Below, in pieces: positions 13,672 through 45,425 of a stretch of 64,000 nt of DNA. The notes under the pieces are model-generated. The model did not search any database, was not told the DNA's origin, and saw only the letters and a list, made by a program, of their open reading frames with translations. The translations under genes and the position numbers were made by a program. The stretch lies in assembly GCA_973895155.1 (NCBI GenBank), contig OZ316895.1, positions 11,430,858 to 11,494,857 of the forward strand, read 5' to 3'. How positions within the stretch are numbered: position 1 is the first letter of the stretch; each line of letters opens with the position of its first letter. Source of the DNA: Marsupella aquatica (taxonomy: Eukaryota; Plantae; Marchantiophyta).

Positions 13672-14019
13672 GAGGGATATGCTCAATAGACCCCCTCCAA
13701 GAGAAACTTTACTTGATCAGCCCCCTCCAAACTTTTTTGTCCCAATCAGCCCCCTCATTATGGCCCGTACCCTTTGCTCCCGTGTAAGGCAGTTTCCCCC
13801 GTGTAAAGGCATTACTGCACAGTTGGGAGCCATGCCACCATGCAAGGTCGCCTCCCGCAGTCGACCACACGACTCCGCTGCAGTCGGGCCGCAACTATGC
13901 AGTTTTGCTCCCCTCGCACTATGGTCCCTTATGAGCGTGAATACATCGTGGTTTATGTCTTCAACAAAATTTCTGTTTTAGGGCGCACATTGTTGGGGCG
14001 CGGTTTAGGGTCAAGCGCG
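13672..14019 (+). repeat. MULE left TIR (~350 bp)
   Basis: Highly similar reverse complement of ~43799-44174. This explains the twin ORFs 13679-13981 and 43865-44167. Confidence 0.93.
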
Positions 14020-20612: not shown

Positions 20613-23296
20613 ATGGCGAACCCCAATGCCCAAAACAACTGAATGCCCCAACTAAAAACTAAATCCCTAGCACTCTCGCTCTCTCTGGCGCTCTCAGGCG
20701 CTGCACAATCTACTCAGACCTCTCTCTGGCGCTGTAGTGCTGTCCTGTCTGTCCTCTACTACACTGGTCTCCTACTACCTCCTCCCTTTGTTGTCACTCA
20801 CGTGGACAACTTCAAAGACTCTGCTTTAGTCCGCTCGCCAAACGCGCACATTCTCCATGGAACACTCTATGTCGACCAACGGTCCCGCGCGCCAATAGCA
20901 TTGCGGAAGTAGATTCAAATTTGAAGACATTATGGTCAATGTCTTCAATATCAATGAAGGAAGTTAAGAAGACAACATGGTCGCTGTCTTGAAGTGCAAG
21001 GATGGAAGATAAACAGGAAGACAACATGAATATGTTGTATTCATCAAAGAATAATGGTGGAAAAAAGTGACAAGAGTCTATTTTGATGCACAACCAAAGT
21101 TCAGTAATAAAGTAACTAGTAAGGTTCAGTAATATCAACATGATATTGTGACCCAAATCCCTGACACTCTATTGCAGCCTCATTGGCCAATTCCATGCAC
21201 CTATCAATGAAAGCTTGTGGCAATTGTTGTTCACTATTTGGGAGAAGGGGCTGAGGCACAATGCTCTGGATTGGTCCTGTGCCTGCTGTTGGTGCTGTCG
21301 ATTCAATACTATATTCAGTCTGTAGTAGTTGGTCTTCCCAAGGAAAGGGTGACACAGGTGGGTGCTCCAAATTGACTGCATCACCATTATCCACCTGCAT
21401 ATGAAGGCAACTTTAAAATCTGTCCCTAGCATGAGACCACACATGCATGAAGCCCACAAGTAATGATATATACTTGTAAGAAGACTGTTAATGTTGGAAT
21501 CCTTACTCTTGCCGGATCTATTGGCGTCACACTATGGACTTTATCACAAGATCTTCGGTTATGTCCAACCTGCCCACACTTACTGCACCTGCACTTCCCA
21601 GTGTTAGGCCCCGCTTTCTTTGCCCTCGATTGAACTTGAACAATTGGAAGTCCAGCAATAGTGTTTGCTGTTGAAAAGGGTTCCACCCTGTTTGGATCAT
21701 CATCTAGTGGATATCTCAAGAATAGTTGTCCAAGGGAGTCAATCACTGATTCTTTGCCTTCTCCAAGAGCCCTAGGTGGATGCCTCCCTCCACGACCCTG
21801 TTCGATGCGGACCATTCTATGTCTACCCCTTTTCACAGCAGCCATAGGAGCAACACAATTTGGACTTGGCATTAAGTCTGATACAATAAAGCTAGGTAAA
21901 TCATTGTCATACAAAGCCCTAATTGAAGCAGTCCGCCAACATTTGTGAAAATGAGCAGAAAAATTTCTGCCTTCCTGGTCATCCCAAGCCATTATATGCT
22001 CACATGGCCACACCATCTCTTGCAGCTCCCAACAAGTGCAACATTTCTTTGGTGACAGTGACACTAGATACTCCTCACTTTGGGATGTAGTTTGAACCTT
22101 GGCTGTGGACGCACCATCATCAAACACCTGAGCATATGAAAACTTGGATATAATTACAAAACTATTCAAATAAAGAATACATTCATACTAGTGTATTTTA
22201 ATTCAACACCGAGCTATTAAGAAGACATTGATGTTACAGTATATATAGAACACGTAGCTAGTAATGCATACACAAGACCAGGCATGAAGATTACCTGCCA
22301 TTGACCAAACGTCTTGAGATTCTTGTTGTACCTGACCAGGGCTGGAATAGTGAGTACTTCCTGTCTCGCCAACGCAACTGCTTTCCTTTCTTTAAACTTT
22401 TGCTGAACATATACCCACATGCGCTCCATCAACTTGCAAGGAGCAAATTCGCGCAAGGGGAGTAAGCCTGAATTTGCTTGCTCAGCAGGGTTGCTTGTAA
22501 CCTTTGCCATGCGGGGAAGTGGAAAGGCATGCCTGGCATAAAGTTTTGCATCAAAACTTCTGATGTAGTCTACAACATTTGCATTCTCATGTGCCTTGAC
22601 GGACTCTGCCAGTCGCTTCAAACATGCTTCAAATCTGATACAGGTTCACAGGGAAAACATTGATGTTAATGTATACAATCATGTCATACACAGAGAAAAC
22701 ATTTGCGTGAGTGATATGTACTTCACATTCTGTATTTGAGGAGAGGTAATATTACTGTATTGAACACTGAGTATGCGGTGTATACATAAGAAGACAAATG
22801 TATGTAGAATCAAAGCAATGAAGGTTTTTGGACTTACTGTCTTTCATCGTTGGCATATATGCATCCTATAAAAATATCTGCTGCTGCTTTGCCATGCCTG
22901 TTCTTGACATTAGCTCTCAAGTGGTTTGCACATGCTGCTGCATGTATCTTACCTGGCCATACATACACTAGTACATATTAAGCTGATTTCCGATGCTCAA
23001 TTTTTGCGAACAATCGGCGTTCGATTCTTTTAGCATCGGAAATTCCGATTATCAAAAAATGGCAATATGCCATACTCTCGGCTTCGGATATCTTCATTTC
23101 TGATATAATTGACAACGGAACCTTTCCGATGCGTTAAAAAACGGATCATATCCGTTAGAAAATACATCGGATCCCTCAACATAAACTTTGATTGATATGT
23201 TCGATGTTTTTTGTAACGAAAATGATGTGCGTTACAATATTGATCGGAAACTTTCCGTAGTTAATAATAACGGATATTATATCCGATTGTGCTAAC

Positions 23297-23478
23297 ATGG
23301 CAAAGTCCGATGTTAGGAGAATGGGAAAGTCCGATGCTGGGAGTATGGGAAAGTCCGATTCTAGAAGAATGGGAAAGTCCGATGCTGGAAGAATGGGAAA
23401 GTCCGATGCTGGGAGTATGGGAAAGTCCGATGCTAGAAGAATGGGAAAGTCCGATGCTGGGAGTATGGGAAAGTCTGG
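23297..23478 (+). repeat. 24-bp tandem repeat (ATGGGAAAGTCCGATGCTRGRAGW), ~7.5 copies
   Basis: Directly visible in the sequence; mirrored at 24325-24505. Confidence 0.93.
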
Positions 23479-24324
23479 TTATGACAAAAAGAAATTTTTT
23501 GATTGTGTTAGAATGAAAAGTTTTGATGTGTTAGATGGGGTATGTGGTTGCACCGACATACTCTTCCCAAAAGATGCAATCATTCTTGCATGCATGAATA
23601 ACTTCATACTTGAGGCAAATGGACTTGAGTGTTGTTTTTGCCTCATTCCAAGACCCAACATATTTTTCCCTTACGGAAATATGTGCTCAACATGCCAAGT
23701 CCAAAATACATCATCTAGAAGGAGGTTGCTTGTCCCATGTAGTCTTTGTTGCAAGTCCAACAACAACATAGTTGATAAAAGATGAGACAATCAGGAGCCA
23801 TTGACGCTGAGGCTTTGGAAGGACCAAAATATCATCCATAACTAATAAGCCATAATTATCCCATATCAAATCTAATGAAGGAGGGCTTTACTATCGATGA
23901 ATGACCCCTGCCAGATTTCTATTGGTTTCTCCTAAGGGAATGTAATAGGGTAACTAGAATAGGTCACTTGATGCAAAGATCTAATCTCATGATAGAGAAA
24001 AATGGATCAAGAATGGGTCCAAATTATGGGTCTTAGTAAACTCACAAGTGTATAAAATCCCCAAACACTCTAAGTCAAACAACAAAAGTGCTAAGCTTGC
24101 ATGTACAATGTAAGGAATAAGAACCACAAAGTTAAGCTCATGTTGGAGGAATAGCAATTGGGATGGGTGACCAATTAGTTGAGAAAATTTGAAGAGTTCA
24201 CATGTCAAGGGAGATGGGCACCTAGCTCATAGTTCCAAATGAAAGTAGAAACCCAATTAAAGGAAGAGATGGGTGACCTGAGCATGTCGCGTCCGCTGAA
24301 ATGCATATCCCATTTTGATTGCTT

Positions 24325-24505
24325 CGGACTTTCCCATTCTCCTAGCATCGGACTTTCCCATTCTCTCACCATCGGACTTTCCCATTCTCCTAGCATCGGA
24401 CTTTCCCATTCTCTCACCATCGGACTTTCCCATTCTCCTAGCATCGGACTTTCCCATTCTCCCACCATCGGACTTTCCCATTCTCCCACCATCGGACTTT
24501 CCGAT
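24325..24505 (-). repeat. 24-bp tandem repeat, inverted counterpart of 23297-23478, ~7.5 copies
   Basis: CATCGGACTTTCCCATTCTC units. Confidence 0.93.
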
Positions 24506-25564
24506 AGAAGTCCGATTGTCGATATCTGATACTATTAAAATGGCATGTTGCGATGCTAGTAGTATCGGATATATGGTTTTTCAAATTTTATTTTACAAAG
24601 GCGTCCGATGTGGAGAGAATCGGAAAAAGGAGGTAAAATGTACTAGTGATAACTCACAACGGCAAGTAGACCTTTATGTCGGTCTGATATGAGTGGCATG
24701 TGAGGCGATTCAATGCCGTACAGTGATCTATCTACCAACACTAGTAGAAACCGGGGGGTATTTAGACCCCATTAAACGACTATTCAGTACCGTATAGGAC
24801 TTGGAAACGACTGGGAAGGACTCTAGTCCTTTATAGGACTGCGAGTCGTATGTTTTGTTACTATAATCAACTGAGTCCTTTATAGAACTGGTTTATAAGT
24901 CGTTTAATAGACTGGATTTTCAGTCTATTTTAGTCTTTGTGTGGGTAGCTTTGGTGAGTCGTTTTCAGTCTTTTATGGGCTGCGATGATGAGTCGTTGGG
25001 AACGACTAAAAAGGTTATGGAGGGTAGTCTTTAAATATACTTTGTGGGGTATGTATAAGTCTTTCATGTCAACTGGATATGAGTGATGAAGACCCCACTA
25101 TACTACTTGGAATGAACCCACTCTTGTGCACAAATAACATATTGCATTCATGTTTTATTGTGTACTTGGAATGAACTCACTCTATAAGTTCACCATTCAT
25201 CATGTTAACATTAGAATACATAGTTTCAGAAAGCCATCTTCTATACCATGTACACTAATATGAATTCACAGATTCAAACTTCATAGACTACAAAGAAGGT
25301 CACAAAGTATTCCTCTATACCATACACACTAATACTGAAATGATAAAATAGATTCAAGTATCATAGACAATCACCATAGAGCCATAGTTTGACATCAATC
25401 ACTTGTTTCATACATACAGAATTCAGAAATATCAATGTCACACACAACGTCTCCTTCATCCTCTTTACCAAATGGAAAAATTGGTACAGATATTTCTTGG
25501 ATCTTTCCAAGGCAATGTCAAAATGTGACACAATTCACATGATTCTATCTACACTTGCATTCAG

Positions 25565-28500
25565 TCACTGCAGACTAACACACTCTGATGGCCAGAGCAC
25601 AAGAGATCCTACTGCATCTGCAATTATTTCTTGAGGTGGATCATCGTCTCTATTCGGAAATGGCAAATTACAATCAGATACAATCACTGTAGTCAACAAC
25701 ACTACTACATGGTCATCCGGGACCACTTTGCCATGGAATTTTGCATGATCCGGTCGCAAAATGCCTGTACCCACACATACCTGCGAGTCATCCTCCCATG
25801 ATAGAAGATTATGGACTGGCTCTGCTGTGGCTATCACCTTCACCTTACCCTGGTTGTTTTTCTTGGCTTTCCTGGGTGGCTTATACATGACATTATTCAT
25901 ACCTTGGTTGCGAGTCATGACTTTGGCACGAGTGTTTTGTGCTGGTGATCGAGAATTGGCTACACTCTTCTTCAAAGAATCTGCATCCATATTTGACACT
26001 TCTGATTGTGTAGCAGGATTTCCCTGCGACATCATCTCAGTATCTGCCAACATTGTACTTGCTTCAATTGAAGCATCTACAATCTTACTTGCATCCAATG
26101 TTGCTCCCAAGTTTCGACGTCGCTTCACCCTACTCCCACTTGGTTGAGAGTCTGTCAACTCTGCATCAACTACAATTCAGTGTCATGTCCAACATAAGTC
26201 AATCACTCATCACATGTGCTAAATGTACATGTCACCAACCACAAAGTTGTCACTATCTCCTTACCATTATGAACAGCCTTCTTCCCCTTCTTTGCCATTG
26301 CCATATGCTTCATGTCTGCTTCTGTTGATCAATAAACACACCACAATATTCAGGTTGAATCTATTAACCACTGAATTGTTGCTCAACATTCATATAGAGG
26401 AATTTAAAGCATCAGCTTACCTGATACCTCCTTGGCTATGGTCACTGAGGCACTGGGCACATCTTCTTCATTATTGCTCTTTGAATCACCTGATACATCA
26501 ATCATGATGTCACTTCAGATCCCAGTTCATCCAACCAATTCTTACAGAAAAGATGACCTCTAACCGGCTTAAGCTTCACAAAACTCCATGCACTTTTCAA
26601 ATGTAATGTACTGGATCATAGCAGGTTACCTGTCTCAGCAACCTTCTTGCCCTTCTGCTTACTGATTACAGGGTCCTTCTCTGCCTCCACTCTTCCTGCA
26701 TTCAAACCATTCACTCAATTCATGAAAACTTACTTCTAACATTTGAACATAGGACACAATAAACAATGGGCCGGTGTCATTTCCATACATGTGTCAGATT
26801 TGCCAATTCCCTTTTTTGTTAACAAGGGCACACTTTGTACAATGTTGCCCTCATTGTTTGGTTGGGAACCACCCAATTTTTCAATCACAAGCTTGAAATT
26901 AGATTCCACTGATGCAAGAAGGTTCGCTACAGATGCCTCCACAATATCCAAACGATCAGCCAATTTACTTTCCACTCGAGGGAGTCCACACTCTAATGAC
27001 TTCAACCGTTCACACATCTCTGTGAGAGTTGTAACAGTTCCCTGTCATAACACAGCTTACATATCTCAGATAACTGTCCCCAAGAATTGGTTGCTTACTT
27101 CCTACTACATTTCTTTCTGATGCTCAAGGCCAAATAGTCACAAAACATACAGAATTACAACATAATCACCTGTTTGGAAGTCACACTTGTCACCTCACTC
27201 CTTTGTTTCATGAACTCCTCTCTCACTTCTTGTGCTGATGGTTCTTCACCTGTCAATTTCTTCTGCAGTCCACATCAACATACATATGAATGAAACCAAG
27301 TGTTGATTGTCAATGAAAATGTAATAATGGTAGCAAGATGATAAGTTTGAGGCTTACTATCAGGCATGTCACTGCCTTACCAATTGTTCTTTCACTGGAG
27401 CATAACTTCCTCTCCCAGCCTATGAAAGGTGTTTCACTTTGCCTCGAGCATTTGACATCAGTTCACTCTTGCTCTGTCCAGCCTCCGACATGAACCCTTT
27501 GATTAACCGTGTCCATTGATCCAGTTCCAATGATGGGGGTGGTGGCATTCTCCTGTTAGAACCATTGTCTATCCACATCCTTTTCAACATATGCCTCTCT
27601 TGTTTCAAAATCCTCATTGCATAATCTGATATGCAATCTTCAACTGGGCCCTTACCATCATTACCAACATAGTCCCACCGTTCAAGAATGTCCTTGCAGA
27701 TAGCAGCCCAATCAGCTTTGTTCTGACTCCTAAACTCTGTAATGCTCAAATCTAACCAACGCAATACTTCTCCTCTTAGGTCAGAATGCCAACGGTTCTT
27801 ACCATCATATGTGGGAGTTATCCAACCTTCGGAATTCACTTCTACTTTACCAAATTTGTTATTGTCTCCTGCCTTGGTACTCCCTGAAGCGCTACTAGGT
27901 GTCCCTCCACGGCCTGGATTGCATTGTCCAAACCTCCCTGGAGTCCCTGCACATTTACAGGATCCATTTACAGTCACTTACATTAGGTAAGTATGAATCA
28001 TAAATCCTGCTGCCAAATATACACTAGACTTCAGAGCAATTCTGCAATGACCAAGTTACCTCTCCCTTGGCGCATAGATGGTTCTGGACCACCTGTCCTA
28101 TTGCTTTGTCTTGATGAATTAGGGCCGTTTCTCCCGCCTGTGAATGATTGCCGCCTATCTGAACGTGGATGGCCTTTGTTGTTTTCGTGATTGTCCCAAT
28201 CAGAGTCTGCATACCAACAGGTACATGCCACACTCATGGACCTATAAAATAAACTCTTTGCCCTAGCTACACATCAGATAAGTCCATATTGAGCTAAATC
28301 TCTACTACCATCACAAAATCACTAGCACAAGGCACTTACTTGTCCAATCATCCTCCTCACCTTTCCATTGCCCTCTGTACCCGTCTCTACCACGCTCTGG
28401 GTGTTCATATTCATCCCATCCATCTTCTACTCCATCATAGTCATCATCATAATTATCAGGCGTCCCTTGCCAATAACTCTGGCTCATTCTAGGGTATGGA

Positions 28501-28682
28501 TTATGTGATTTCTCTCTAGCTGCCCACCTACCTGGGACTTGATGAGGGCCCTGTGCATCCTGCATAGGTGCATTTTTCTGTGAGCCCCCTGCATCTGGGT
28601 CTCCATCCATATCCAATCTTTCCTCTTCACCCCACTCTCCAAGCCCCATGTCTGTCTCCATGTCATCACCCTCTTCCCCCAT
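25565..28682 (-). pseudogene. TnpA-like (Ptta/Tnp1 En/Spm) multi-exon gene
   Basis: RHMLKRMW..PPPSLELDQWTRLI..W/F..QSKSELMSNARGKVKH*AGRG (Ptta-like), followed by a coiled coil. The C-terminal FHGKVVPDDHVVV..LPFP..IADAVGSLVLWP is Tnp1-like. Premature stop at 27420. Confidence 0.8.
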
Positions 28683-28859
28683 AGCTTCTGCATAGCACCC
28701 ACAACCAAACACGGAGAATCAACACACTAAATTCAAAGTATCAATCAATTTCATGCATATCCAACTATCCTAAACATCATTCCAGGCAGCAATTCCCGTT
28801 CTGTGACTCTGTGCAGGTAGTCATCCTCAACCTCATACTTGCCAATCGCCAGCTGTTGC

Positions 28860-31800
28860 CTATTGCAAATCATCAACCTCATCATATTCCATTTGCCCAG
28901 GTTCATCATATGTCTCTCTCAATGTTAAGGGGATGTAGTCAGTCCCTGCCCGAGTTGGAAGTACAGTCTCATGACTAGGATGCTCGAATGCAGCATGGTC
29001 ATCCAAACTGAACTCTACTTTACTTCCATCCATCCACCTATTCCGTGCTTGGCTATGGCATACCACCCTCCAGCCATGTGACTCCTCCACATCTGCAAAG
29101 AAAGCCTGTTCAACTTGGCTAGGGAAAACAAAAGGCTCAGATCATTCTGGTACTCTGGACCTAAAATTGGCCAACAAGAACCCATCATGATCACGCTTCA
29201 TGGTGGCCCTTGGTCTCTGCCACTCTGATTTCATCCATGATCCCTTCATCAATATCACTGGGACACTTGTGTTACCATAATTCAACACCCAAATGTCGGT
29301 CAACTCCCCCACGTAACCCATCTTCATCCACCCCCTCTGTTCTTCAGAGGTTCTCTGCTCAAACACAGAAATCAAACCACAATCATATGATACACAATGG
29401 TCACCCTGCTCATCCCTCACTCGATAATGATTTCCATAAGCTCTCATCCATTTGTAGGTCAGAATAGACAATCATGGTGGCACAGATAGAAGATACAAAT
29501 CCTTCTCCATATCTGGGTGATGTCTACTATGCTCTCGAATTGTCACCCGAATCCACTGCTCGAACTGTGGGAAGGGATCCTGCTGCCCAGAGTGTGCAAC
29601 TTTTTGCATATCATATCCCTGCAATATGAGGTACAGGCATAGTTAGGTCTAAACAACACATGACAACCTAAGATCACCCTTGGAACAGACAAGAAGCATC
29701 ACAATAAAGGCAAGTCAATTCAATCACTCACCTCCACCATGGTTGCATAGGCTCTGTGTTTGCCAGCACATATGAATGAGCCTTGTCTCGAATCGCAACA
29801 GGCAGCTGAACAGCACGTCCCACACCTTCAACAACCTCGCCACTCACTCCATCATCTTCACCAGATTTCCAAACTCTTGTCATAGCTTCACCAGACCCAG
29901 CCATGTACTCTGTTAGGAATCCCAATGTCTCATCCTTAATGTACCCCAATGCCATGGAAGCCTCTGGCCTGTAGTATGTTCTCACATGACCTTTCAACAA
30001 CTTCATGTATCGCTCCATAGGGTACATCCATCTGGTACTGACTGGCCCATACTGCCCTAGCTCTTCTACCACATGGATTAGGAGATGAGTCATAACATCA
30101 AAGAAAGCAGGGGGGAAGTATATCTCCAAGTCACAGAGGACATAAGCAGCATCCTGCTTCAACTGCTCCAATCCTTGGGGATCCCACACTTTCACACATA
30201 TACGGCGAAATACATTGCACAGTCGAAGAATGACATTACGGACTGGTTTCTGCATGAGACCTCTGAGGCATAGGGGCAGAATGTGCTGCATCAACACATG
30301 GTAGTCATGTGTTTTCATACTGCCAAGTTTATTCTTTGTAATATGCTTCTTGAAGGCACCAGCATAGCCAGAGGGCACTTTCAGACAGCTCAATCTATAC
30401 AAGAATGTCTTCCATTCATCCTGTGTGCACACATAGGGAGCTTGGAACTTGAGAAGTACATTGGGATTGCTTGCATGGGGCTTCAACCAAAGGTGAGGGC
30501 GAATCCCCTTCTGTTGCATATCAGCTCGAACTGCTCTTGTATCTTTCTCACCCGACAAGAACTTCAGCAAGCTCTCACAAATATTTTTCTCAATGTGCAT
30601 GACGTCCACATTGTGTTTGCTGGGCTTGAATTCCTGCACTCCACAAAGCAAAGAATTCAACAACAGAAACACTAATTAACCGCATAGGAGGATTGTAACC
30701 AACATCAATCCACCATTGCTCCAATCTAAAATTGCAATCATACAGGGGCTGGAGGCTAAGTACATTACCCTCCAGTACTCCAACTCCAAGTCCATCAAGG
30801 TCTGTCTTTTCACACCGTGTTTCACCACTGGATCCTCAGGTTCTCGATCAGTGGCACTTCTCTTGTCCTAATCAACCTTCCTGGCTGCCCACCTCAGGAC
30901 TTGCTCTCTGGTGACCCTCTGTGGTGGGCCACGAAGCTCTGTTTTGTTGTTGAAGTGTGCAATTTGAGACCGTGTGTGCCTGTAAGGATGATCAACAAGC
31001 AGATACCTTCTATGCCCCTGAAATTTCATACTGTGCAGGGCATGCGACCACTCACTTGTCACATTTTTCCCACATGGTGTGCACCCCACATAGCCCTTTG
31101 TCACTCGTCCAGATATGATGCCATGGCCTGGGTAATCTGCTATATCCAGCAAACAAATTGCATGCAGTCTAAAGGGGCTGGGTCGAAGAAGCCCCTTCAG
31201 AACATCATGGGTTAACACCCCTTCTATCCACAAAGTCTTCCACTCTTCCACTGCTGGAGCCAACATGATATCTATGAATTGCTCGGTCACAGAAGCTGGT
31301 CCAGGGATTAACAGCACCATCATGACAAAAAACCTCTTTGTAGTCATCCATGGGGGAAGGTTGTAATTTAGCAGCGTAACCGGCCAACATGAATAACGGT
31401 TGTTTTTGTCTCCAAATGGGTTTACTCCATCCAGTGATAGACCAAATCGAAAGTTCCGCTTCTCTGCAGCAAACTGTGGCCACCTCTCATCAACAAATTT
31501 CCAATGGTTGGAATCTCCAATGTGACGCTGCAGGCCATCACTGCTCTTGTTATCAGGAGTCCATGTCATCAGCTTGGAAATGGCAGGGCATCTAAACAGA
31601 CGTTGTAGTCTAGGAATGAGAGGAAAATGACGAAGAACCTTGGCAGGGTGTGTACATTTCCCTACATTCTTGTACCTGTGCTTACCACAATGAGGGCATA
31701 TCAATTTATCTGCATGCTCTTTGCGAAAGAGAACACACCCATCAGGGCATGCGTCAATAGACACATAGTTCAGCCCAAGGTTAGACATCAATTTCCTAGC

Positions 31801-32559
31801 CTCATACATATTTTTTGGAATTGAATTACCATCTGGTAACACATTTCGGCGCAGGAAGGTCAACAACTCTGTCACAAATATATTGGGAACATTGTGATTG
31901 CCACAGATGTTCAACAACAACACGACAAAACCCAGCTTGGAGCAGTTCGACCCCTCGTAGATAGGAATGCAAGCTTCTTTGATGTGTTTTGGGCCCCCAA
32001 ACACCCACTCCCTCTCTGTTGCACCTTCCCCAATGTCAAAGTCAGGTTCAGCTTGGCCGTCGCCAATGTGTGGCTGCGGTTCATTGTCCTCTTTTGATTC
32101 CACTGTGTCGTAAAAAGCATCAAGGTCTTCAAAAATCTCTTGAACCATTCTTGGGACATCCATCCCACCGTCCTCAGTGACTGCCTCTGCATCTCCATGT
32201 TGGTCATCCATGTTCTCATGTTGGACCCCAGGACCATCCTCTGCACAGTCTATGTCCTGCTCTACGTAGTCTCTACGCCTAGCTGTATTAGAATCCACAA
32301 AGTCAGCTCTCCACTCTTCATCAGAGGAGTCTTCTTCTGCTGGTACATTCCAAACCCTCCACCGAGGGTGCCTTTCATGCCGCAGCAGGTGAAGGTGCAC
32401 AGTGTTCAAACTCAACGACTTGAATCCTTGGCACTGTGTGCATGGGCATCTCATCCTCCTACTCCTACCTTGGGCGGCCCGGGCTTGTTCACGCATCCAC
32501 AATTTAGAATCATGATGCCTAATCCTAAATGGGTTGTGAAGAGGCAACCTTGGAGCCAT
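28860..32559 (-). pseudogene. TnpD-like CACTA transposase (Tnp2 core plus DUF4218/DUF4216-like regions)
   Basis: CPCTQC..HL..H, IDACPDGCVLFR..CPHCG..RY, LRHFPLIPRLQRLF, LSLDGVNPFG, YNLPPW, DYPG, DVMHIEKN, MKTHDYHVLMQ, RWMYPMERYM, EPFVFPSQVEQ. Intron 30634-30768. In-frame stops at 30868 and 29142. Confidence 0.95.
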
Positions 32560-32885
32560 CACTATACACACGCACTCAGCACCCTGTCATTTTATTATGC
32601 AAGTGAAAAATACACTTCCTGTTAAGGATTTCACCCCCGACTGTACTTGCCAAAATACGTAACGTTCCAAAAAAACAAAAAAACAAAAAATATAGGTGCC
32701 TGAGTCATGTACCTATTCTCAAGTGAATGAGACAAAATTCCTAAATGTTTGAGGGTGTCAACTCCTCCGCTGTCCTCACATGTACTGCCTCTGCACGTAC
32801 ATCCATGACCATATCAGAGTCCAATCATGTATAGTCATAGACACAGGTGCCAGGTGCGAGACCGGTGTGAGATGTCCTCATCTTA

Positions 32886-33293
32886 CTACCACATCAAATA
32901 CGGATACCAATCCTGTTGTCGATGCCACTCAGCCCTGAGGTACTCAGGCATGTACATTAAGTCATCAAGGTCTAAACCCTGCTCATGCCATGGTGGTCTT
33001 CGATCCGTGCCTACAAGCAGTGGCAGCAGTGCCCTCCATGGTGCACATGTTGCTACCAAGTCCCTCCACTGGGTACTAATTAGTCTATATTTGCAGATAT
33101 CTTGTGCGCCAGACACCACAAGAACCCTCAGCCAGACATGTGTAAGAACTATATCATCTGCCAAATCAGGCAACAAGGAACCACCTACAGCATCGTGCTT
33201 GTCTAACTCATCTGCTGAAAAGTAAATGTCCTCTTCCGACTGTGCATCCTCATTCACCACAGCATTCACAACACATCCAAGGTCTGTAGGCAT
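32886..33293 (-). CDS. CACTA cargo ORF with F-box-like motif
   Basis: LLPDLADDIVLTHVWLRV....CKYRLISTQWRDLV resembles the LP.LPddi...IL.RL....R.VS..WR.L F-box consensus. Confidence 0.62.
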   Translation of the reverse strand: MPTDLGCVVNAVVNEDAQSEEDIYFSADELDKHDAVGGSLLPDLADDIVLTHVWLRVLVVSGAQDICKYRLISTQWRDLVATCAPWRALLPLLVGTDRRPPWHEQGLDLDDLMYMPEYLRAEWHRQQDWYPYLMW

Positions 33294-33886
33294 TATCTCG
33301 CATGGAAGCTGCCTCTTCTAGACCGTCTGCACTTAGTCTCCCCAATTCCTTCTTCTGCAAATACCACACTGAACCCCTTCATAATGGTATTTCTCTCCTT
33401 GTCATGCTCATTCAATATAGCATCTGCACGCATAGGATGGTGTCCTATGTTGACAACAGGTCCATATTGGACAGAAGCAAAGTTGGGTTTCTCTGCCGCT
33501 GCTTCATAGGCTTTCTTTTCAGCCAAAGCCTCTGCAGTGGCCTCCTCACTCTCCCACAACTCATATTGCTCAGTACTCTGTACACACCTATGTTTAACAG
33601 AATCGATCAGCCAAGAGACTTCAACTACTTTTAGACCTTGGTTGGTAATGGCAGAATCAATGAAGGACCATGACCACTTGTTCATCACATCCAGCCATGT
33701 CCCCGCAACAACATGTGTAGTCTGTGGAGTGATGTCCTTGACTTCAGTCCCATGGAACTCTGAGAATCGTTTTTGTACGATTGGCCAACTCACTTGGGTG
33801 AACCCATAGTGGCCAGGAATCAAAATGGCTTTGATTCCAGCCAACAGAGGCGGGTGGTCAACCTTTGTACGTTTCCTAGAGGCCAT
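33293..33886 (-). CDS. CACTA cargo ORF with a single BRCT domain (DNA polymerase lambda/Pol X N-terminal type) and an N-terminal NLS-like segment
   Basis: MASRKRTK..LLAGIKAILI..IVQKRFSEFHG....TTHVVA....VVEVSWLIDSVK....TEQYEL shows the THV and W..DS BRCT signatures. Confidence 0.8.
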   Translation of the reverse strand: MASRKRTKVDHPPLLAGIKAILIPGHYGFTQVSWPIVQKRFSEFHGTEVKDITPQTTHVVAGTWLDVMNKWSWSFIDSAITNQGLKVVEVSWLIDSVKHRCVQSTEQYELWESEEATAEALAEKKAYEAAAEKPNFASVQYGPVVNIGHHPMRADAILNEHDKERNTIMKGFSVVFAEEGIGETKCRRSRRGSFHAR

Positions 33887-34484
33887 GTACACACGGGCCA
33901 CCTAATCACTGCAGACCGAAAGATAATGCGTTCACCTGATAATCGAAGGGCCCTTAAAATGCTGCGTTTATAACTTGGTCCAGTCCAGTCGTCTGGTGAG
34001 TCTCTGCTTCGATTCCAAACGGGAGAAATATTGGGACAAACGTACTAGACACCTGCAAGCATGCACCTCATAGTTTGAATATGTGCCTTCACAATATTGA
34101 AGGTGACAAGTGCAATTGTTTTGTGATGCCACATACAGATGTTGTAATTGGGCAGACATTCAATGAGAATACAAAATGTTGGTACACTTTAAGGGAATTC
34201 TCGCAAATTAAATAGCCTTGTAACTTATATGCTCATAATGAGAAGTCCTGATTTAATTTAAGCAGTGTCATGTAAGTCGTGATCAAAATGATTGCAGAGT
34301 TAAAAAAGTTCCTAGAAGGCTTAAGGGGAGTTTTTGAAGGCATGTACCCAGGAACAAGTAATGAACTTAGGGTACTTGTTGCCTAAGCATCCTCTCCTAC
34401 AGAGGTCCTTCTTCTCAAAATTGGAATGTCTGCAATCTCCAAGGTATCCACATCAGGTGCACTATGCATGTACATTATTCAGGT

Positions 34485-35161
34485 TCAAAGCCAAGAAATG
34501 TGATCTCTCATGGGAGTGTGCAAAGTAGGATCTATGGCATGGCGATGACAATAGAAGATCCATCGATCAACACCATGTGCAGAGTGATCATAGATGTGTC
34601 TGTCACAAGCATAGCCTTCTGCTTGACGCTCCTTCAAACAATGAAAGTGCCACATGGTGGGACACCTAACATAGTGGACTATGTCCACCCAGAAATCTTC
34701 ATCGTGCTGACCACATGCCTTGCACTTATGAAGTGGGCAAGCTGTGGCAAGATCGGGCAAACATGAAAAACAAAAGAACCTCACACAATATCTGTCAGGG
34801 CATTTCCTAGTGGTGGAGCATCAACAGAGCCCTCATAAGACCCCAACTTCCCACACTGTGCACACTTAGCCTGCTTCTCCAAACAATCAGTGCACATCCA
34901 GCCTCCCTGGTGTGCTGACGGGAGGCCCACTCCTGGACAGTTGTTTTCTGCAGCAAGGTCAGACTCCGGGTTGAGGTGGAAATGCCTCATGCAAGGGCCC
35001 TCACATATGGCTAAGCCACCACCATCGTCACAAATGGCACAACAATGAGTTGCCTTCTGGAAAATCTGACTTGCGGAGAAGTTACTACCATCTGGCCCAA
35101 CTACACCTGTGTTGCTCACCTCTGTCCCCCGCTTCTTGGCTCGGATTTTAGGGCGTGCCAT
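34485..35161 (-). pseudogene. Stand-alone EDM2-like (NSD-type) triple PHD finger protein, ~225 aa, with one frameshift near 34812
   Basis: CAICDDGGGLAICEGPCMRHFH..C..WMCTDC; CAQCGKLGS..[fs]KCPDRYCVRFFCFSC; CPLHKCKAC..RCPTMWHFHCL; tail IFYCHRHAIDPTLHTPMRDHI, similar to the EDM2 IYC..HEID..L.TP.RDH motif. Confidence 0.82.
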
Positions 35162-35830
35162 GCCTACGCATGAGACAGATAGTACAATTTAGCAGAGTGC
35201 ACAGACAATACAATTTAGTGCAATGTACAAAAAGTACAGTGTAGCATATAGACTAGAGTGGCAATTGCTACTGCAATGAAATGTTCACACACATGTGCAG
35301 AGTAGACATACTTTTTGGTTTGTTGAGCCCACACTAAAAACTGATCCCCTCGTATAATAGCTCCACCTACACCTCAATTTTGTGGCTATGATTCACCAAA
35401 GGAGATCTGCAACAAGATTTAATGCATTTGAATCACATATAACAGTCGTGACATGTAAAATAGGCATTTTTTGAACAGGATTGGTATCAAGCAGTGTGAT
35501 CAGGGTTGTAATTTATACATCCTAAATAGGCTATGATAGTGAATGAGACAAATAAGTTAGGCATAAATCACTTTTTCCAGGTTATCACATGGCCCATTAA
35601 TTCCAGTCTTTGAAAGGAGACTTTTAAGTGAGCTTGCTAGCCTCTTAAATTAGGATATTGTACTTAGTGCAGCCATAATAGGATAAGTTATGTACTGTTG
35701 ACCCTAAACCCTGGACCCAAAATTGGTCATAATTCAAAATCTTAAGTAAATATCCTCTCTGTTCAAGTCAAAGTGTTAAGTTATAGGTCAATGGTCTCTG
35801 GTTTGTGCATGCGGTGTGACAAATGGTCCT

Positions 35831-36280
35831 CTAGAGTGTGTGATCCAAACATGTGTAGACACCAAAGTGACCGGTGGTGGGGTCTGGGAGGGCAGGACAA
35901 GTGACATCGCCAGGCACACTGCAGGATGGCGAGTGGTTCCAGATGATACATTGTGCTCTGTGAAAAAACCGACATCCAAGAGAACGGTCATCCAACTCTA
36001 GGCCAGAAGCTCTACAGGCAGGACAGTCATATTGGCAACTGTGCACACACCCTTGGGCCCTAATTTGTGGCGGGTCATGTACAAGAGACAGAAATACCAA
36101 GGATGTTGGGAAGGGTGGAGAAGCAGGTACAGGCCGGCTGTAGTTGTTCCTGGCAACAACTGGGTACTCAAAGTACCATGCAGACTGGGCTGGAAGGATC
36201 CCAAGTCTGACATACTCAAGGTGCAACATCTCTGCCTTGCGTGCAAGCCGCACATGTTCAGCGTTGCGGGTCCTCACCAT
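35831..36280 (-). CDS. CACTA cargo ORF, Cys/His-rich, unknown function (149 aa)
   Basis: ATG start (MVRTR), uninterrupted, co-oriented with the other cargo. CxHxCxxxCxxC cluster. Confidence 0.45.
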   Translation of the reverse strand: MVRTRNAEHVRLARKAEMLHLEYVRLGILPAQSAWYFEYPVVARNNYSRPVPASPPFPTSLVFLSLVHDPPQIRAQGCVHSCQYDCPACRASGLELDDRSLGCRFFHRAQCIIWNHSPSCSVPGDVTCPALPDPTTGHFGVYTCLDHTL

Positions 36281-36505
36281 AAGTGTTGCTTTTGTGGAGC
36301 AAGGTGAGCAGGAGCTGTACTTGCCTCACCAACAGCAACCAACCTTAAATTATCAGTTCCCACTCACTGTGTCATTCCATTGGTTCCAGCTAGGGGTCAC
36401 AGTGTAAACATAGCATGAAACACTCCTAATCAACTTGCTTACAAACTACAATATCCAGAAAGAGTGAAAGTCTCACCCTCCAGTGAGCAGCAGAGAGGTA
36501 GTTCA

Positions 36506-37036
36506 CTAGATGTGTTGATGTGCAGTTAAACCTCCACTATTGCTTACTTCTGGTGTATGCTGCTCAGAAGAAGACATATTAGTAGCAGCAAATTGCAAAT
36601 AATGGCCATAAGCAAACCGTGAGAGTTTGCAGAATGCTACGACAAATCCATCACAGCAGTGCTCCACAGGAATGAAACCAAGCAAAATTTGGTGACCTCG
36701 GCCAATGACAAGGCCAATGTAGTGAACAATCCTTGACCGATCAGGATATGGATTGGAATTACAATTAGTCAGCTCTTCTTCTTTGTTTTCTAACTCTGGG
36801 GGAAATGAGCATGACCAGGGAATTCTCTGAGAAATAGAAGTGCACAGGGAAAATGAAATTGGCTCATTCAGCTGCGCAAGACCGACCATTGCAGCATACT
36901 TGGACAGTTGTTCCGCAATACATAAAATACCCTGACTTACATGCAATCGATACAATCTGCTTCTGTTGGCTGTCCTACAGCTCATGGCAGTGCCGTTGGG
37001 ATAGGGTAAGTGAATATTGCCATAGCTGAAGCACAT
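36506..37036 (-). CDS. CACTA cargo ORF, unknown function (176 aa)
   Basis: Long ATG-initiated ORF, co-oriented with the other cargo. No motif recognised. Confidence 0.3.
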   Translation of the reverse strand: MCFSYGNIHLPYPNGTAMSCRTANRSRLYRLHVSQGILCIAEQLSKYAAMVGLAQLNEPISFSLCTSISQRIPWSCSFPPELENKEEELTNCNSNPYPDRSRIVHYIGLVIGRGHQILLGFIPVEHCCDGFVVAFCKLSRFAYGHYLQFAATNMSSSEQHTPEVSNSGGLTAHQHI

Positions 37037-40000
37037 TGAGCTTGCAGCAAGAAGTGAAGGAGCATGGCCAAAAGCAGAAAAGACAGACAGGTTTTACAAG
37101 AAGAAACTAACAACCGCCAATCTGCTCAAATCCGCTGCATAGATCAAACCCTCCAAACTACACAGCCCTCCTTTGAAAACAATCCAATGTGCTTTGGCTG
37201 GTGGATGACAAGGACTGGGAGAAGAGGAAACGTCTGCACAATCAATCCAAATGACGGGACACAGAGACCAGGCACAGAGAGGATTTGTGCTTAGACAAAA
37301 ACCACAAATTGTAGCATGGGTGCCATAGCATTCTAGACAAAGCACAAAACATAGAATCTATGAATCTATGACTCATGGACTAACAAAATGATTGGGTAGC
37401 ATGGCAAAAGGAAAGACAAATTAATTTCAAAATGACAACATGGCCCATTTCCGCCATTCATTTGACGTTGCTAGGTGTCCGTAAGATGACTGACCCACAG
37501 ACAATCCCGACAACCTCATCTGACAGACTGCTTTTCTAGTGTGAAGAAATACATGATTACAAGCAACACCACGCCTCATCCAAGCAGGGAATTGAAAACA
37601 TAACCATGTCATTCCTGTATTGGACAGTGTCCTCTGCCATTGCACTGCATAGTTGTTATTCCATGTTGGTTGTCAACAGTTTGTTGGCTTGCCACAGCCT
37701 AGATAGAACAATACAATACTGTACATGAATACAACAAGAAAAATCTGCATACAGCGATGGCCCGGTCACTTGAGGAAAAAACAAAACTAAGAAGGCAGGC
37801 ACACGGGCAACCGAGAAAAAAAGCTAGTGGCGCCTCGCGGAGAATCCAGAATGGTAATGCCCTTGCCCAGAAGCTTGGGAAACAAAAGAGAAAAAAGCAA
37901 AAACGAGCTACCGACCACCATCTTGACCAGGCCCGCCACAAGGTATGGCTGGAGGCTGTGGTCCCCCCCTTAGTAAAGAAAAGGATGCAAGTCGGTGCAC
38001 GGGGCACAAGGCATGTTCGGATCCAGGGAGGAGCACAACAGTAATGTCAAGCAAGAAGTGTGGAGAGACCAAACAGTAAACAAAAATAGGGGAGAACAAA
38101 CATACATCAGCAGCAGCAGGAAACGAGAAAGTTGATTTGGGAGGGATTGTAGGGAGAGAGATTTTGGTGGGCTCGGCTACGCGTGAAATATCAGGAGATA
38201 GATGCGCGAGAGAGTGAAGAGGGTGGCAAGCGGAAGACAGGTTGGGACTGGACCCTTGGTGCCGGGGAGTAATATATGGGGTAATATACGTAGAGACAAA
38301 GCTGTACTCACTTGATTGAGTAGGCAAGTGGGTGGACGAAGATCAACAACCGCAGTAGCAGCACAGCCAGAGAGGCAAGAAAGGGGAAATTTCAGCAAAG
38401 GTAAGCGACACAGACAACTCACCCTCCGTCTCACCCTCCCAGCTCCAAAGTTGCAAGAGCAAGAAGTCAAAGGCACTGAAACAAAGCGGGTGGCAGTTTC
38501 AGTATCTCAGGCAATGCAAAATTAATCCATACTTAATCAGCCCTGGCCACACATTCCTTCAAAGCCCCTCATACTAGCAAGCAGGTCTGGCCTATGAATC
38601 TTGTAGTGCTTAACGATACAAAGCCTTCCCAAGTACCAATTCAAAAGTAGCAGAAATAGATTGAAAGCTAGTTCCGATGATAGCTCCCAAAAGCTTTCCT
38701 CAGCCCGATTCCTATGCACATCAGAGGAGCTCAAACCATTTAGAAATGAGATCACAGGTTACTCTTGACAATCTCAAAAATGCCACAACCTAAGCATTGA
38801 CAACTCCGTCCCCCCATTCTAATTTCTCCGACAAGTTTGCCTTAAAGCACATCCACTCGCAGTTCAAGCAGATTCAGAATCATCATAGACAATAGAGTGT
38901 TCCACCATAGCCCACGGTAGGTCCACAGCCATCGTAACGAACGCTCCGCCCCCGGGGCTTATTAGTATTGCTCACTTTTAAGAAGGGCAGTTTTCGCAAA
39001 AGCAGTCTAATTGCCTAGACTGCACTAGAAAAGTTGGAGGCAATATCACATCGGAGCATTCTGCGTCTAAGGGCCAGCGACGCCGTTCAGGAGATAGATG
39101 CGCGAGAGAGTGAAGATGGTGGGGAGCGGAAGACGGGTTGGGACTGGACCCTTGGTGCCGGTGGGTAATATGTGGGGTTTCAATGAACAATGGGCCAGTT
39201 TGAGGAGGATTAAGAAGCGCGCACCCCACGGTCTTGTGTGGTGGTTGGGTGGGGTTTTGTTTGATAGAAGAAGAAATCACCATTCTCTTATGGAAGAAAG
39301 AAAATCGCAGGAAACAATGGGCAGGAGAACAAGGCATGTAATAGAGAACAACGAGGCATGTAATAGAGTACTTGCGGTTACTCTAACGGTGCACGAACAC
39401 TCACCTTTGTCTTCCGCTTTGTCTGCTGTGGCCAACAAATCCTAGAGCGCTGCCAAGCTTGGTGGTTGCTTGATGGTTGAAAGTGTGCAGCTCACGTCCC
39501 TACCTCAATGTCCAACTCAATGTGGGATGCTGCAGCTTCTCTTGGTCGCATCTCCTCTTGGTTGCATCTCCTCCTTGTCGCAGCTCCTCTTGGGGTTCAC
39601 AGCTAGCGCACAGCTAGCGCGCAGCAGCGCTCGATGGTTGACAATGCGCAGCTGAGCTAGGAGAAGAACTGAATGACTGTGGCTGCTCTTCTCTGCAGTC
39701 CAAGCACCCGGCTGGCAGAATGCTACGACACCTGAAAGAAGCACACTTTCAGCTGCATGGCCAGGACTAACCTTTGGCTGATGACACTGATAACCAATGG
39801 CAGCACTGTCAATTGCTTCCTCCTAACAAACAACCGGCTCCCGATTCTGCAACTGCTCTTTAAGCTCCACGACCTCCTTCACAACTCCAATGTCCACCTT
39901 CCGCAGTGGTTGCCTTCCACAGCGCCTTCACAACTCCAATGTCCACCTTCTGCAGCAGCAAACGATTGCCGCCCTGCTCACGCCTCCTTTGAATGCCTCG

Positions 40001-43000
40001 GCAACCTTGAGGACACACTACAATTAAACTTCCGCAACAATCGCCTCACCTTACGATAGACCTTGGCACCACAACACCTTCCCAGATCACAGCTGCTCCC
40101 CTCAGCTAAACCCTCAGCGCCTCAGTCCCCAGATCACAGCTCCTCCCGAACTGCAACTCACTCAAAACCTAAGCACTCAGGAGTGCCCTCAACAATGAAC
40201 AATGGGGCAACTCAGACCGGAAGCAAAGAGCCCTGCGACTGTAAAAGCCTTGGAACAGTACGCAGCCGCGCAAAACCTCAACATTTGACAGGCATTGGAT
40301 GCTCTACCCTAACCAACACTCACTAAACCAAGACTTAGTGTGGCCGTCTCCTCAGCAGCTCGCGATCCGTAGACACTGATTGTAGCTCGGCAGAGGACAA
40401 CCGAGGGTCAAGTTCGTAAGAATCCCCCGTTTCCCTCGCAAAACCCTTTGCAAAACCCCGATCCTCCCACCCCGTCTCCCTAAACTGTGCGACCCTAAAC
40501 TCCCTCTGGCTGTTGTGTTAGTGCCCCTACAGAGAGAATGAGGGGACCCTATGCCAAAATGTGGGCAAAAGGATTGACCGTTGGGGTGAGCCGTTGAGTG
40601 GGGCGAGGCGTTAAGTGTGACCCCAAAAATTCATTTAGGCAAAATGAATTGTGGTAAATTGTGACCTGTTTTGAGAGTTGAAAGATAATCAGAAGTAAAG
40701 GGACCATGGAGAAGACGGGGCCAATGTAATTAAGTCAAGCATCACTCATTCAAAATCCACATGGACATAGTTGGGTACTATATGAGACACCAGGGGACAA
40801 GACATTTTTGAAGGGTTGGCATATTTACCCTCATCCCTAAACTTGGATGTGGTGCACATAACATCCACTCTCCTACCCCAAGTACAAAACAACTCCTAAC
40901 AACTTAGGCCCAATGTAGTCACTTGTGCCCAACCATGTTCATTAAGAGCCTAAATGTTTTCATTTCACCCACATTGCATGTTGTTGGGGGTTCCATGGTC
41001 TGTTATTATAATGTAACTCCTCATGTGAACTTTGTGAAATTTAGTATTTAAGGGACCATGGAGAAAGCGGGCCAATGGAGTAATTGGAACCATGAACCTT
41101 TTTGGTCACAAATAAGGCCATCTAATGAGTTATGCCCCTTGCTATCACCATCTTTATAGAATTAACCCTCTTCAACATAAGTGAACATTACCCATGTAGT
41201 GCTAGACTATTCATCGTTCACAAAGTAGCAAGGACCCTTCTCATAGTCTTTTAGAGAACCATATAACACTAATAGTCGTTTGTAGTCTTCAACAAAACCG
41301 GCACAATGGGAGCGAGTCGTTTCAAGTATGGAAAAAGGACTTAGTGGGCTTAGTCCTATAAGGTATGGTCTAAATGGCCCCGGTTTCTACTAGTGCAATT
41401 TCAAAAACCAGATCCAATTATCTGTGTTCTCAACTGGAGCTACTGCGTAACATAGAATCAATCTTTGGCCATTTCCATCCAAACATGTAGCTAAGAATAG
41501 TTGAGTGGGGTACTTCCTGTTCTTTGTATGACATGCATCAAGAGAGATGAGAGGTTGAATGTAGGTACATGCTTTTTGTGTAGCTGATGGGCAAATGAAA
41601 GCTCGACAGAAAATGTTGGAGTTTTCCATTGGGGACCAGACTGCCACTGCACCAGAGTCAGTCTTTCTCACCTTGGCAATTAATGCCGGAATCATTTGAA
41701 ACGTGTCTTCCTACCCACCAAGGTGCAGATCCCGTACATAGTCTTTTGCTCGCCACATTTGGTGGTAAGTGCTGTTCTTTTTATAATCCCCTTGAAATCC
41801 GCAGAGTAGTTCTTTGACCGGCACCTTCAGATTTCTACACACTCTAGGCGCCAGTGTGTCTCCTAATCACACTGCCTTTTGTGTTGGGCCCCTCCACTTG
41901 TGTTTAGATGTTGGACAATTGTGTTTCAGCTCACACACAGTAATGATATGAGCCCCACTGTGAGCTTGCCTGTGACATCGGACCCTGAATGGGCAGTAGG
42001 CTGAACAATCAAAACCATCTTCATCGTACTCTGGTGGGGGCCTAAACCTAGAAAACTCCCCGCATACTCTTGTGGTAGAAATCTTCCTGACTTTTACCGT
42101 GCCAGGGGCATGTGACCCAGGTAGCCACACACTGCTATGCTGCACTACTGTGCGTGGTTTCTTTGCCATTGTTGTGTTCCTCTAGAGATAGTTTGGATCC
42201 AGAGGTCCAAGGGGTGCACGAACCTCCTATTGCAATCCACATAGAACATATTCATGTTATTGTATATGGAAACACAGAAGACAGTGGTGTCATTGTATAC
42301 AAAATACACACCACAATGGGGATGTTTATATGAAACATAGAAGACACTCATGACGTCGTATACAAAACATTGATGGTAAAATGCAAAGAAGACATTCTGG
42401 TTGAGGTATACCTGTGGAGCATTTGTGAGAACGATTGCTCCAAACTGGTTTGTTGATCCTGCCATCTGTTGAATAGCAATTTGAAACTCACAGTCTTCCA
42501 TCTGCAATGGCAGCACAAACATGCCATGCATCAAAACATAGAGTGACAAGTATTACATTTCTAACCCTTCAAAAAAACCACAATGATATAGGTATGGACT
42601 CTTGAAAAGCTTTACCTCTTCCGCTGTCAATAATGGTTCTGCATAGGCATTGTGTGACCTTTGTCTACCCCTTGGTTCGGATGTCATTCCTCTGTCACGG
42701 AACCCACTATACTCACCGTAACGACTGTTATAGTGCCAATCTAATTCATGTTCATCTTCATCATCCAATTCATGGATATACAGTGAATTTTTATCTTCTG
42801 AACTATCACTACATTCAGAACTGTCTGGCCCAGGTCTGATGTCACCACTTGACTTCCTTTCATATCAATGAGCAATCTTACTAAATCGGCAAACCCTTGT
42901 TCAAAAATTGGGGGCGGTTTTAAGTCTATACACTACTCGGCCATGCATCACAGCCCATGAGGCCAAACATCTATCAAATTCATCAAAATTGCTAAAACGC

Positions 43001-43798: not shown

Positions 43799-44174
43799 CG
43801 CGCTTAACCCTAAACCGCCCTGACAATGTGCGCCTCGACAATGTGCGCCCCGACAATGTGTGCCCTAAAACAGAAATTTTGTTGAAGACATAAACCACGA
43901 TGTATTCACGCTCATAAGGGACCATAGTGCGAGGGGGGAAAAACTGCGTAGTTGCGGCCCGACTGCAGCGGAGTCGCGTGGTCGACTGCGGGAGGCGACC
44001 TTGCGTGGTGGCATGGCTCCCAACTGTGCAGTAATGCCTTTACACGGGGGAAACTGCCTTACACGAGAGCAAAGGGTACGGGCCATAATGAGGGGGCTGA
44101 TTGAGGCAAAAAAGTTTGGAGGGGGCTGATCAAGTAAAGTTTCTCCTGGAGGGGGTCTATTGAGCATATCCCTC
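43799..44174 (-). repeat. MULE right TIR
   Basis: Reverse complement of 13672-14019. It has three copies of a ~15-bp CACATTGTCGGGGCG unit where the left TIR has one. Confidence 0.93.
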
Positions 44175-45425
44175 TAAGTGCCAAGTGCCCAAAACACAAA
44201 AGGAAACCTTGATCTGTATTTAACATACAAATTTAATTAAAATATGAACAGTAACTAAACGCTGTGACTGGTTCACTATAACGAGATGGACACGTATGTT
44301 CATCCGGGCCCTTAAATAAGAAGGCAAAAACACGCACTGGATTGTCAGAGAATCTTTGGCCGACTCTGATCCCCGACATTCCTCTCGTTGCAGAGTCGCC
44401 GATCGACGATCCTACATGAATCCATGGCCAGGATCGACCGCTTTAGTCTCAATCGGAAAGTGACCCTGTACGGGAAATCGCTCACCTGAGGCGGTTAACG
44501 ACTGAGTAAAGTCGCGAAAACTCCCGCGCTTCGGGAAAGATCACTCCACGACTGTGCGCTTGACATGCGTCGTCGATATGTCCAATCGACAGCTCTCGCA
44601 GACCTGGTGGGCACAATGATGTTACCAAATGGCCCTTCTCCAGTTCTCCTCGTCCCATGGGTTAACTATAATAAATCCCGATTTTCCGAGCCGAACAGCT
44701 GATCTTGAGTTCCATAATCATGATACGACGACGCCGGACTGACATTTAGGGTGATAACGTGATAACCTTGTTCCTTGGGTGTAAGCTTAGCCTCCGAATT
44801 CGGTAAGTTTAGGGTTTAGGTAAGTTCAATGTTACTCCATGACAAAGTGGCGGCTGGTTTGCTAGACTCTGTTAATGTGGTGGTGTAATAATATCTGGGA
44901 TGAGTAAATTACCACAGTATTTGTGGATGTCAATAATAGGTGACTTACTATAATCCAAAGGACACAGAGGGCTTGAGTTGATGGTTTTAGCGACTATGGC
45001 CATATTTCTCTGAGTGATCCTCCTCTGCTAGTTTACTCATCAGCTTCACCAGGCTTTCAGCTTATGCTGAGTATGGCTTTAGTTCCTTAGATATTGTGAG
45101 GGATTCTCGGTTTTGGCTCTTTGGTTGTCTTGAGGTTTCTCTTTTGTTTTTTCTCATCATTGGTTGGATCCTGTCTCCTGGTTTCACATTTAATTTTCTT
45201 TGGCAGTGATGTATGTATTGCATGATCTCAAAAAATCAAACTCTGACTTGTTATTACACCAGGCTATGTTGTAACACTAAGCTATCAGATACATCTTAGC
45301 TTAATCTACACACCTTACTATGTAAACCTGATCATTCTAACTGGTAGCCTGTTTACAAATTTCCATCTGGGCACAAAGGAATTCTGGCCATTTGTTGAAA
45401 AATGGTTTTTCATCACTAGTCAATT

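Follow-up and report, generated by a model that had tools for sequence, protein, structure and literature searches.

EDM2 is the described plant system that shares a cassette of PHD fingers with the gene analyzed here (accessible portions of PMC7472560, PMC3632883, and PMC9292364). The protein binds H3K9me2 and partners with AIPP1 and ASI1, and the ASI1-AIPP1-EDM2 complex promotes distal polyadenylation over intronic heterochromatin (accessible portion of PMC7472560); transposon silencing is altered in edm2 mutants (accessible portion of PMC3632883). For anti-silencing by transposons themselves, the precedent comes from element-encoded accessory proteins, VANC of VANDAL (MULE) elements and TnpA of Spm, which act through DNA motifs with shown effects on methylation (accessible portions of PMC10398659 and PMC13317346). 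Viral and host histone mimics such as influenza NS1, G9a, and SetDB1 provide another precedent, in which a protein that is not a histone carries a short H3-like motif within a flexible stretch (accessible portion of 10.1101/2025.01.21.634156).

We analyzed a window of 64,000 nucleotides from the liverwort Marsupella aquatica (contig OZ316895.1, positions 11,430,858 to 11,494,857), in which a CACTA transposon carries a short cargo gene (Table 1; coordinates are those of the window). Its predicted product has in common with EDM2 the triple atypical PHD cassette and the C-terminal tail motif, but it differs in lacking the RFD and the C-terminal region, in a shorter PHD2, in the loss of an acidic residue ahead of PHD1, in an H3-like N-terminus, in forming a clade of its own, and in its transposon location. 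Like VANC and TnpA, the cargo may relieve silencing of its own family, but it joins an H3-like tail to a fold of the histone-reader type, and the likeness is one of proposed role. The putative mimic motif resembles that of NS1, G9a, and SetDB1 in kind but is N-terminal, spans both Lys4 and Lys9, is transposon-borne, and is joined to PHD fingers.

Table 1. Features of the CACTA element and its cargo gene, in window coordinates.
Feature	Coordinates	Strand	Evidence or remark
Complete CACTA (En/Spm) element, 16,657 bp	24739..41395	-	houses the PHD cargo gene
Left terminal inverted repeat	24739..24758	+	target duplication 24736-24738
Possible TnpA-like exon, by position alone	27420..27977	-	no Pfam family matched
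Tnp2 transposase, several pieces	29046..32559	-	PF02992 E 7e-59, PF13963, PF13960 E 2e-27; tblastn with P0170
Third cargo ORF, 135 aa, weakly F-box-like	32886..33293	-	PF00646 E 0.083
Second cargo ORF, 197 aa, BRCT-like	33293..33886	-	PF00533 E 9e-4, just under cut-off
Cargo gene, 226-aa H3-tail-like plus triple-PHD protein, broken in present copy	34485..35161	-	frames and intact homologs
PHD3 and EDM2-type C-terminal tail, residues 148-226	34488..34724	-	Cys165 to Tyr in present copy
PHD2, residues 100-146	34728..34864	-	shorter than the host EDM2 finger by about 18 residues; contains the frameshift
4-nt deletion of present copy	34808..34811	-	base count against P0001; public-run contigs
PHD1, residues 41-93	34883..35041	-	preceded by clade-specific Gln-Lys-x-x-His where an acidic residue stood
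Basic motif, residues 2-10, with the spacing of histone H3 residues 1-9	35132..35158	-	5 of 6 strict positions in window copy
Acceptor-like TAG 2 nt before PHD-gene ATG	35164..35166	-	same geometry ahead of Tnp2 ATG
Cys/His-rich ORF upstream of PHD gene, 149 aa	35831..36280	-	no Pfam or Atlas assignment
Right terminal inverted repeat	41376..41395	-	target duplication 41396-41398

The CACTA setting named in the preliminary description holds: the CACTA-started terminal inverted repeats are matched at 18 of 20 positions, a 3-bp target duplication borders the element, Tnp2 pieces lie inside it, and one contig in public run X1 joins 24735 to 41396 without the element, as expected of an empty site. 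The two subterminal ends of 500 nt contain one 8-mer present 6 times; a Pfam search of the element gave no match to a TnpA family. Among the best 120 of 601 Tnp2 matches, the sole named relative is from Riccia (41%). Contigs of run X1 span the entire element, with the body in long pieces less than 1% divergent and about 1,800-2,070 deep. A young family with many copies would account for this cover; depth is not to be read as copy number. The CpG observed/expected ratio is 0.36 over the element and 0.29 in the PHD gene, a depletion that methylated DNA would lead one to expect. At 29615, X1 contigs carry one extra base in 1949 of 1949 depth, so the Tnp2 region of the present copy seems to be lesioned too. 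In run X7, depth is high at Tnp2 and the PHD gene and low in between, and cannot rank the parts. Runs X9 and X11 contain Tnp2 relatives and give the PHD gene little cover, which suggests that related elements may manage without it. The small shares in runs X6-X11 were not used to infer range.

Around the CACTA insertion lies a MULE-like element, recognized by a MULE fragment at 41390-41710 and by 331-nt inverted arms at 13671-14001 and 43845-44175. This element (13671-44175, arms 97% complementary) encloses a second, non-autonomous CACTA-like element of 1.7 kb at 22966-24648, which has an 11-nt terminal match, a 3-bp duplication, and inverted 24-nt tandem arrays and is separated from the large CACTA element by 90 bp. 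Elsewhere in the window we observed a fold-back element at 11926-13035, with inverted arms of 243 nt and 107 nt and related pieces near 45690, 61740, and 62575; exons of a protein kinase with repeat domains at 48749-53081 (+), which by eye we take to be KEG-like; and an exon at 1420-1830 (+), presumably of a malonyl-CoA:ACP transacylase.

The cargo gene is followed on the same strand by the BRCT-like ORF, the faintly F-box-like ORF, and Tnp2. The BRCT-like stop and the F-box-like ATG share one base, so translation of the two may be coupled. Upstream of the gene, open frames at 36280-35831 (-) and 36002-36307 (+) overlap in the deepest X1 bin of the element (7609); Pfam and the Atlas returned nothing usable for the overlapping frames at 35831-36307.

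Two minus-strand frames make up the cargo gene, 35188-34781 (with an ATG at 35161) and 34820-34485. In a gapless alignment with P0001, an intact homolog of 226 aa, the first corresponds to residues 1-117 (79% identity) and the second to residues 119-226 (83%). Four bases are absent relative to P0001 at about 34808-34811; the lesion is therefore a 4-nt deletion, and of the earlier proposal that two ORFs are joined across a single 1-bp frameshift near 34812, the two ORFs stand and the single base does not. Contigs of five of the eight public runs (X1-X5) contain four extra bases at this site, and no such insertion is listed in X7, X9, or X11, where the gene is thinly covered or represented by diverged pieces. 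Two four-base forms account for the whole X1 depth at the deletion site (2057 and 1812.9 of 3869.9). In X2 and X3, less than half of the depth has the extra bases and several diverged contigs stop at the site, so further broken copies may exist.

The other lesion of the present copy is at residue 165 (34673-34671, change at 34672), where Tyr stands in place of the expected Cys. In X1, X4, and X5 the Cys codon has all of the depth at 34672 (3586, 10006, and 207, respectively); its share is 34389 of 34860 in X3 and, in X2, 38334 of 42124. A Cys-to-Tyr change had been thought likely from the window copy, and with the Cys codon in nearly all of the depth of five runs, Tyr165 is private to this copy or rare. 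The present copy is damaged; the family is not. The gene had also been called intron-free, which is true of the coding stretch, and the acceptor-like AG 2 nt ahead of the ATG makes a spliced leader possible. Because the ATGs of the PHD gene and of Tnp2 both follow a TAG by two bases, one leader may be spliced to several ORFs.

The three atypical PHD fingers read from the window are recovered by profile and sequence searches. Their Pfam matches lie below cut-off (PF23011 E 9e-5, PF23004 E 1e-3), a profile match to NSD2/NSD3 extends over positions 15-170 (E 1e-11), and phmmer with P0001 gives 248 matches, the best seven of them short (166-245 aa) and the next EDM2-like. Long EDM2-like proteins form the majority of the best 150 of these 248 matches, in line with the resemblance originally proposed, and the best long relatives have E values of 8e-28 to 1e-18 and identities of 31-48%. 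The Atlas labels P0001 as NSD-type PHD (0.93; 339-aa plant cluster). The motif of the C-terminal tail, likewise first described as EDM2-like, occurs in all 9 intact short proteins and in 100 of 130 host-type rows; none of the 3 NSD-like rows has it. With NSD2/NSD3 PHD1-3 the cargo shares the profile match and a weak fold match (Z 3.9, rmsd 3.3, 75 aligned), but the cargo proteins lack SET and PWWP domains, and the NSD-like rows, besides lacking the tail motif, fall outside in the tree. These comparisons support a triple-PHD cassette of EDM2 type, not NSD type, encoded as a short gene of its own.

The cassette appears to have been remodelled. Of 120 host-type rows, 114 have an acidic residue ahead of the first PHD1 Cys; none of 20 short rows does (a further 14 of 134 host-type and 1 of 21 short rows could not be parsed), and the short rows carry Gln-Lys-x-x-His at the PHD1 entry instead. 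In AIRE-type fingers, an acidic residue near the PHD entry holds H3 Lys4; given its loss, the specificity of EDM2 cannot be assumed for the cargo cassette. PHD2 has a median length of 43 residues in short rows (12 parsed) compared with 61 in host-type rows (104 parsed). Only PHD families were found in the 217-245-aa cargo proteins, with no RFD and no long C-terminal region.

A single-chain fold predicted from an 11-row alignment reached a moderate pLDDT of 69.8, with residues 1-26 below 50. Foldseek against the PDB found no match to the model at E 0.001, and VIA-align gave Z values of 4.0 or less, with PHD-type chains at ranks 1, 2, and 5-7; the PDB searches found no EDM2 structure. A match to Scone-R was dismissed as summed noise. 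A scan of metagenome contigs yielded one locus, a full-length host-type EDM2-like transcript of 1305 aa.

The claim that the CACTA element contains a stand-alone short gene is upheld by intact homologs of 217-245 aa that form one clade; four of them, at 39-83% identity, share the stop position or differ from it by no more than 8 residues. The 9 near-complete rows have pairwise identities of 39-91%, and 26 Cys/His columns are conserved in 8 or more of them; identity between branches of the clade is about 40%. In a tree of 148 cassette rows (11 of 159 were dropped as shorter than 150 aa), all 15 short rows fall on a single branch (SH-aLRT 100), apart from all host EDM2-like proteins, so the proposed comparison with host-type EDM2 separates the two. 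A 43-row tree, rooted on three NSD-like rows, places the short clade at 100/99 on a stem of 1.36, outside the flowering-plant EDM2 group (99/94) and without a supported sister, though the long branches leave its deep position unsure. No close host donor was found among 133 host-type rows. The long stem, about 1.4 changes per site, together with the absence of a supported host sister, points to an old capture; the capture proposed in the preliminary description is not supported as an event between this element and the EDM2 of its host.

Intact frames, kept Cys/His columns, and a separate long-stemmed clade together speak for an old cargo gene rather than recent host scrap, and the family does not look like the set of recent, decaying host fragments against which the first description asked to be checked. 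A recent, near-identical Pack-CACTA host piece was considered and rejected, the best long relatives among the phmmer matches being 48% identical or less and the zinc ligands kept. The cargo is very probably a conserved transposon gene. A distant member, P0009, and a Tnp2 protein, P0185, come from the same source (ENA) and from contigs of identical size, 13,432, which suggests that they share a contig; by reading of the tables, no such contig match to a Tnp2 protein was found for the other short proteins. None of the ten short proteins looked up by cluster, nor P0115, had an informative name. At least 12 short relatives look cut or frameshifted. A crude selection test on DNA (29 ORF variant sites among 40 of 126 rows) counted 10 synonymous and 19 replacement changes, where 20.6% were expected (P=0.059), which is not significant. 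Several of the top long PHD matches are from liverworts, which also contain a second group of EDM2-like proteins, 620-770 aa long and with a C-terminal cassette (P0012, P0015, P0017, P0024, and P0029; 100/99 with P0042).

The basic N-terminus was compared with the order of H3 residues 1-9. The pattern was noticed by eye first and tested afterwards. A six-position rule applied to 19 N-termini sums to 73, compared with a shuffle mean of 42.3 and a maximum of 51; since any kept motif beats shuffles, the H3 order was then scored alongside every other arrangement of its nine residues, 22,680 in all. It ranks 7 of 22,680 over the 19 rows and 4 of 22,680 over 14 dereplicated rows, all of which are relatives and thus not independent, and in each of three subgroups it lies in the top 0.27-0.33% of permutations. 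Over 114 host-type segments the H3 order is unremarkable, with 72% of all orders scoring at least as high. The reversed rule gave P=0.046 overall. The motif is present in 16 of the 19 rows, with Arg2 and Lys4 in 16 of 16, Ala7 in 10, a basic residue at position 8 in 12, and Lys9 in 11; Pro is the usual residue at position 3 (8 of 16), and position 10 shows no conservation. It is missing in P0002, P0003, and P0088, and P0002 and P0003, close intact homologs, match at 2 of 6 positions only. One subgroup, of seven rows, has the motif at an internal position of the predicted protein, which would leave no free N-terminus. Met-Ala-Arg-x-Lys begins 6 of 19 clade N-termini and 4 of 271 other proteins. 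The gene had been credited with its own start, stop, and nuclear localization signal (NLS); an intact frame is confirmed in other copies, and for the basic N-terminus an H3-tail mimic suits the observed order of residues better than a plain NLS does.

Short PHD-only EDM2-like proteins of grasses (e.g., P0031 from Eleusine) resemble the cargo in having a lone EDM2 cassette, in 250-390 aa, but P0031 and P0125 nest within flowering-plant EDM2 and the H3 order is not found there: across ten short PHD-only EDM2-like rows, 85% of orders are as good as the H3 order. Four such proteins, P0031, P0050, P0097, and P0160, also start Met-Ala-Arg-x-Lys; P0031 and P0160 are named from Eleusine.

Several other accounts of the cargo deserve weighing against a histone mimic. 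RAG2 steers RAG1 to a chromatin state, and by analogy the PHD cassette might steer the transposase, with the basic N-terminus serving only as an NLS or DNA-binding arm. The strand and acceptor-ATG geometry common to the PHD gene and Tnp2, the kept zinc ligands, and the fingers retained in P0002 and P0003 without the H3 spacing would all suit such an integration-targeting reader; it nevertheless seems less likely than a mimic, as an NLS would not need the H3 order (top 0.03% of permutations) and the acidic residue before PHD1 is gone. The tail might instead occupy the protein's own PHD groove, to be released or locked by methylation. Tail and reader do belong to a single chain, with 29-40 residues between them in the 16 motif-bearing rows, but residues 1-26 are below pLDDT 50 in the single-chain model from 11 rows, and the loss of the acidic residue ahead of PHD1 speaks against a canonical Lys4 pocket in that finger, so that self-gating is improbable; a predicted complex of the tail with its own cassette scored 0.01, which counts neither way. 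A comparably low probability attaches to a dominant-negative or stand-in role in the ASI1-AIPP1-EDM2 complex that would protect full-length transposon transcripts. The kept EDM2-type tail motif, the distal polyadenylation role of the complex (PMC7472560, in the portion accessible), and the silencing changes of edm2 mutants (PMC3632883, likewise in part) agree with this role, but identity to the long proteins is 31-48%, PHD2 is shorter, the PHD1 entry is altered, and the RFD and C-terminal parts are missing.

The frame could be the last exon of a longer spliced protein, to which the acceptor-like AG 2 nt ahead of the ATG would be suited, as would the longer start predicted for P0003 and the Gly that stands before Met in the window copy, P0003, and P0006, a residue compatible with a kept acceptor. 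We consider this quite improbable, because Met is kept directly after the acceptor and similarity starts there; a search for longer proteins gave only 220- and 226-aa matches among 14 candidates, weak evidence since these are unspliced gene calls. A Pack-CACTA piece of a host gene, amplified passively and with no role of its own, would agree with the two lesions of the present copy, the many cut relatives, and a synonymous excess short of significance. Frames nevertheless stay intact and zinc ligands conserved when identity is down to about 40%, the stem is long, and no close donor was found among the 133 host-type rows, which makes this account very improbable.

We tentatively favor, from sequence comparison, a cargo protein composed of an H3-tail-like N-terminus and a remodelled EDM2-type PHD cassette that would serve the element as a counter-silencing decoy or adaptor. 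The gene would be expressed from the element's promoter via a spliced leader. Upon loss of the first Met, host enzymes or readers of H3K4/H3K9 could mistake the tail for H3 and so be drawn off or bridged. The cassette would anchor the protein to chromatin or to a partner and would have given up the way in which host EDM2 reads the H3 tail. A fuller version is more doubtful: that an ancient plant CACTA lineage has its own H3-tail mimic and EDM2-derived cassette as a virus-style decoy against host histone methylation, one of a PHD/BRCT/F-box-like cargo set fed by one spliced leader.

In the open-access literature searched, we found no report of a CACTA element carrying either an EDM2-type PHD or a histone mimic. 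The main text of an atlas of Arabidopsis transposon products (PMC13547354, in the portion accessible) does not mention PHD, EDM2, histone, BRCT, or F-box; its supplements may bear on this. Even without mimicry, the cargo would be an old, conserved CACTA accessory gene with no description in that literature, and a natural stripped-down EDM2 cassette. The small size of the protein and its intact homologs make peptide and expression tests simple. Counter-silencing by plant transposons has so far been known, in VANC and TnpA, to work via DNA motifs; the cargo, if the favored reading is true, would attack at the histone level, as some viruses do.
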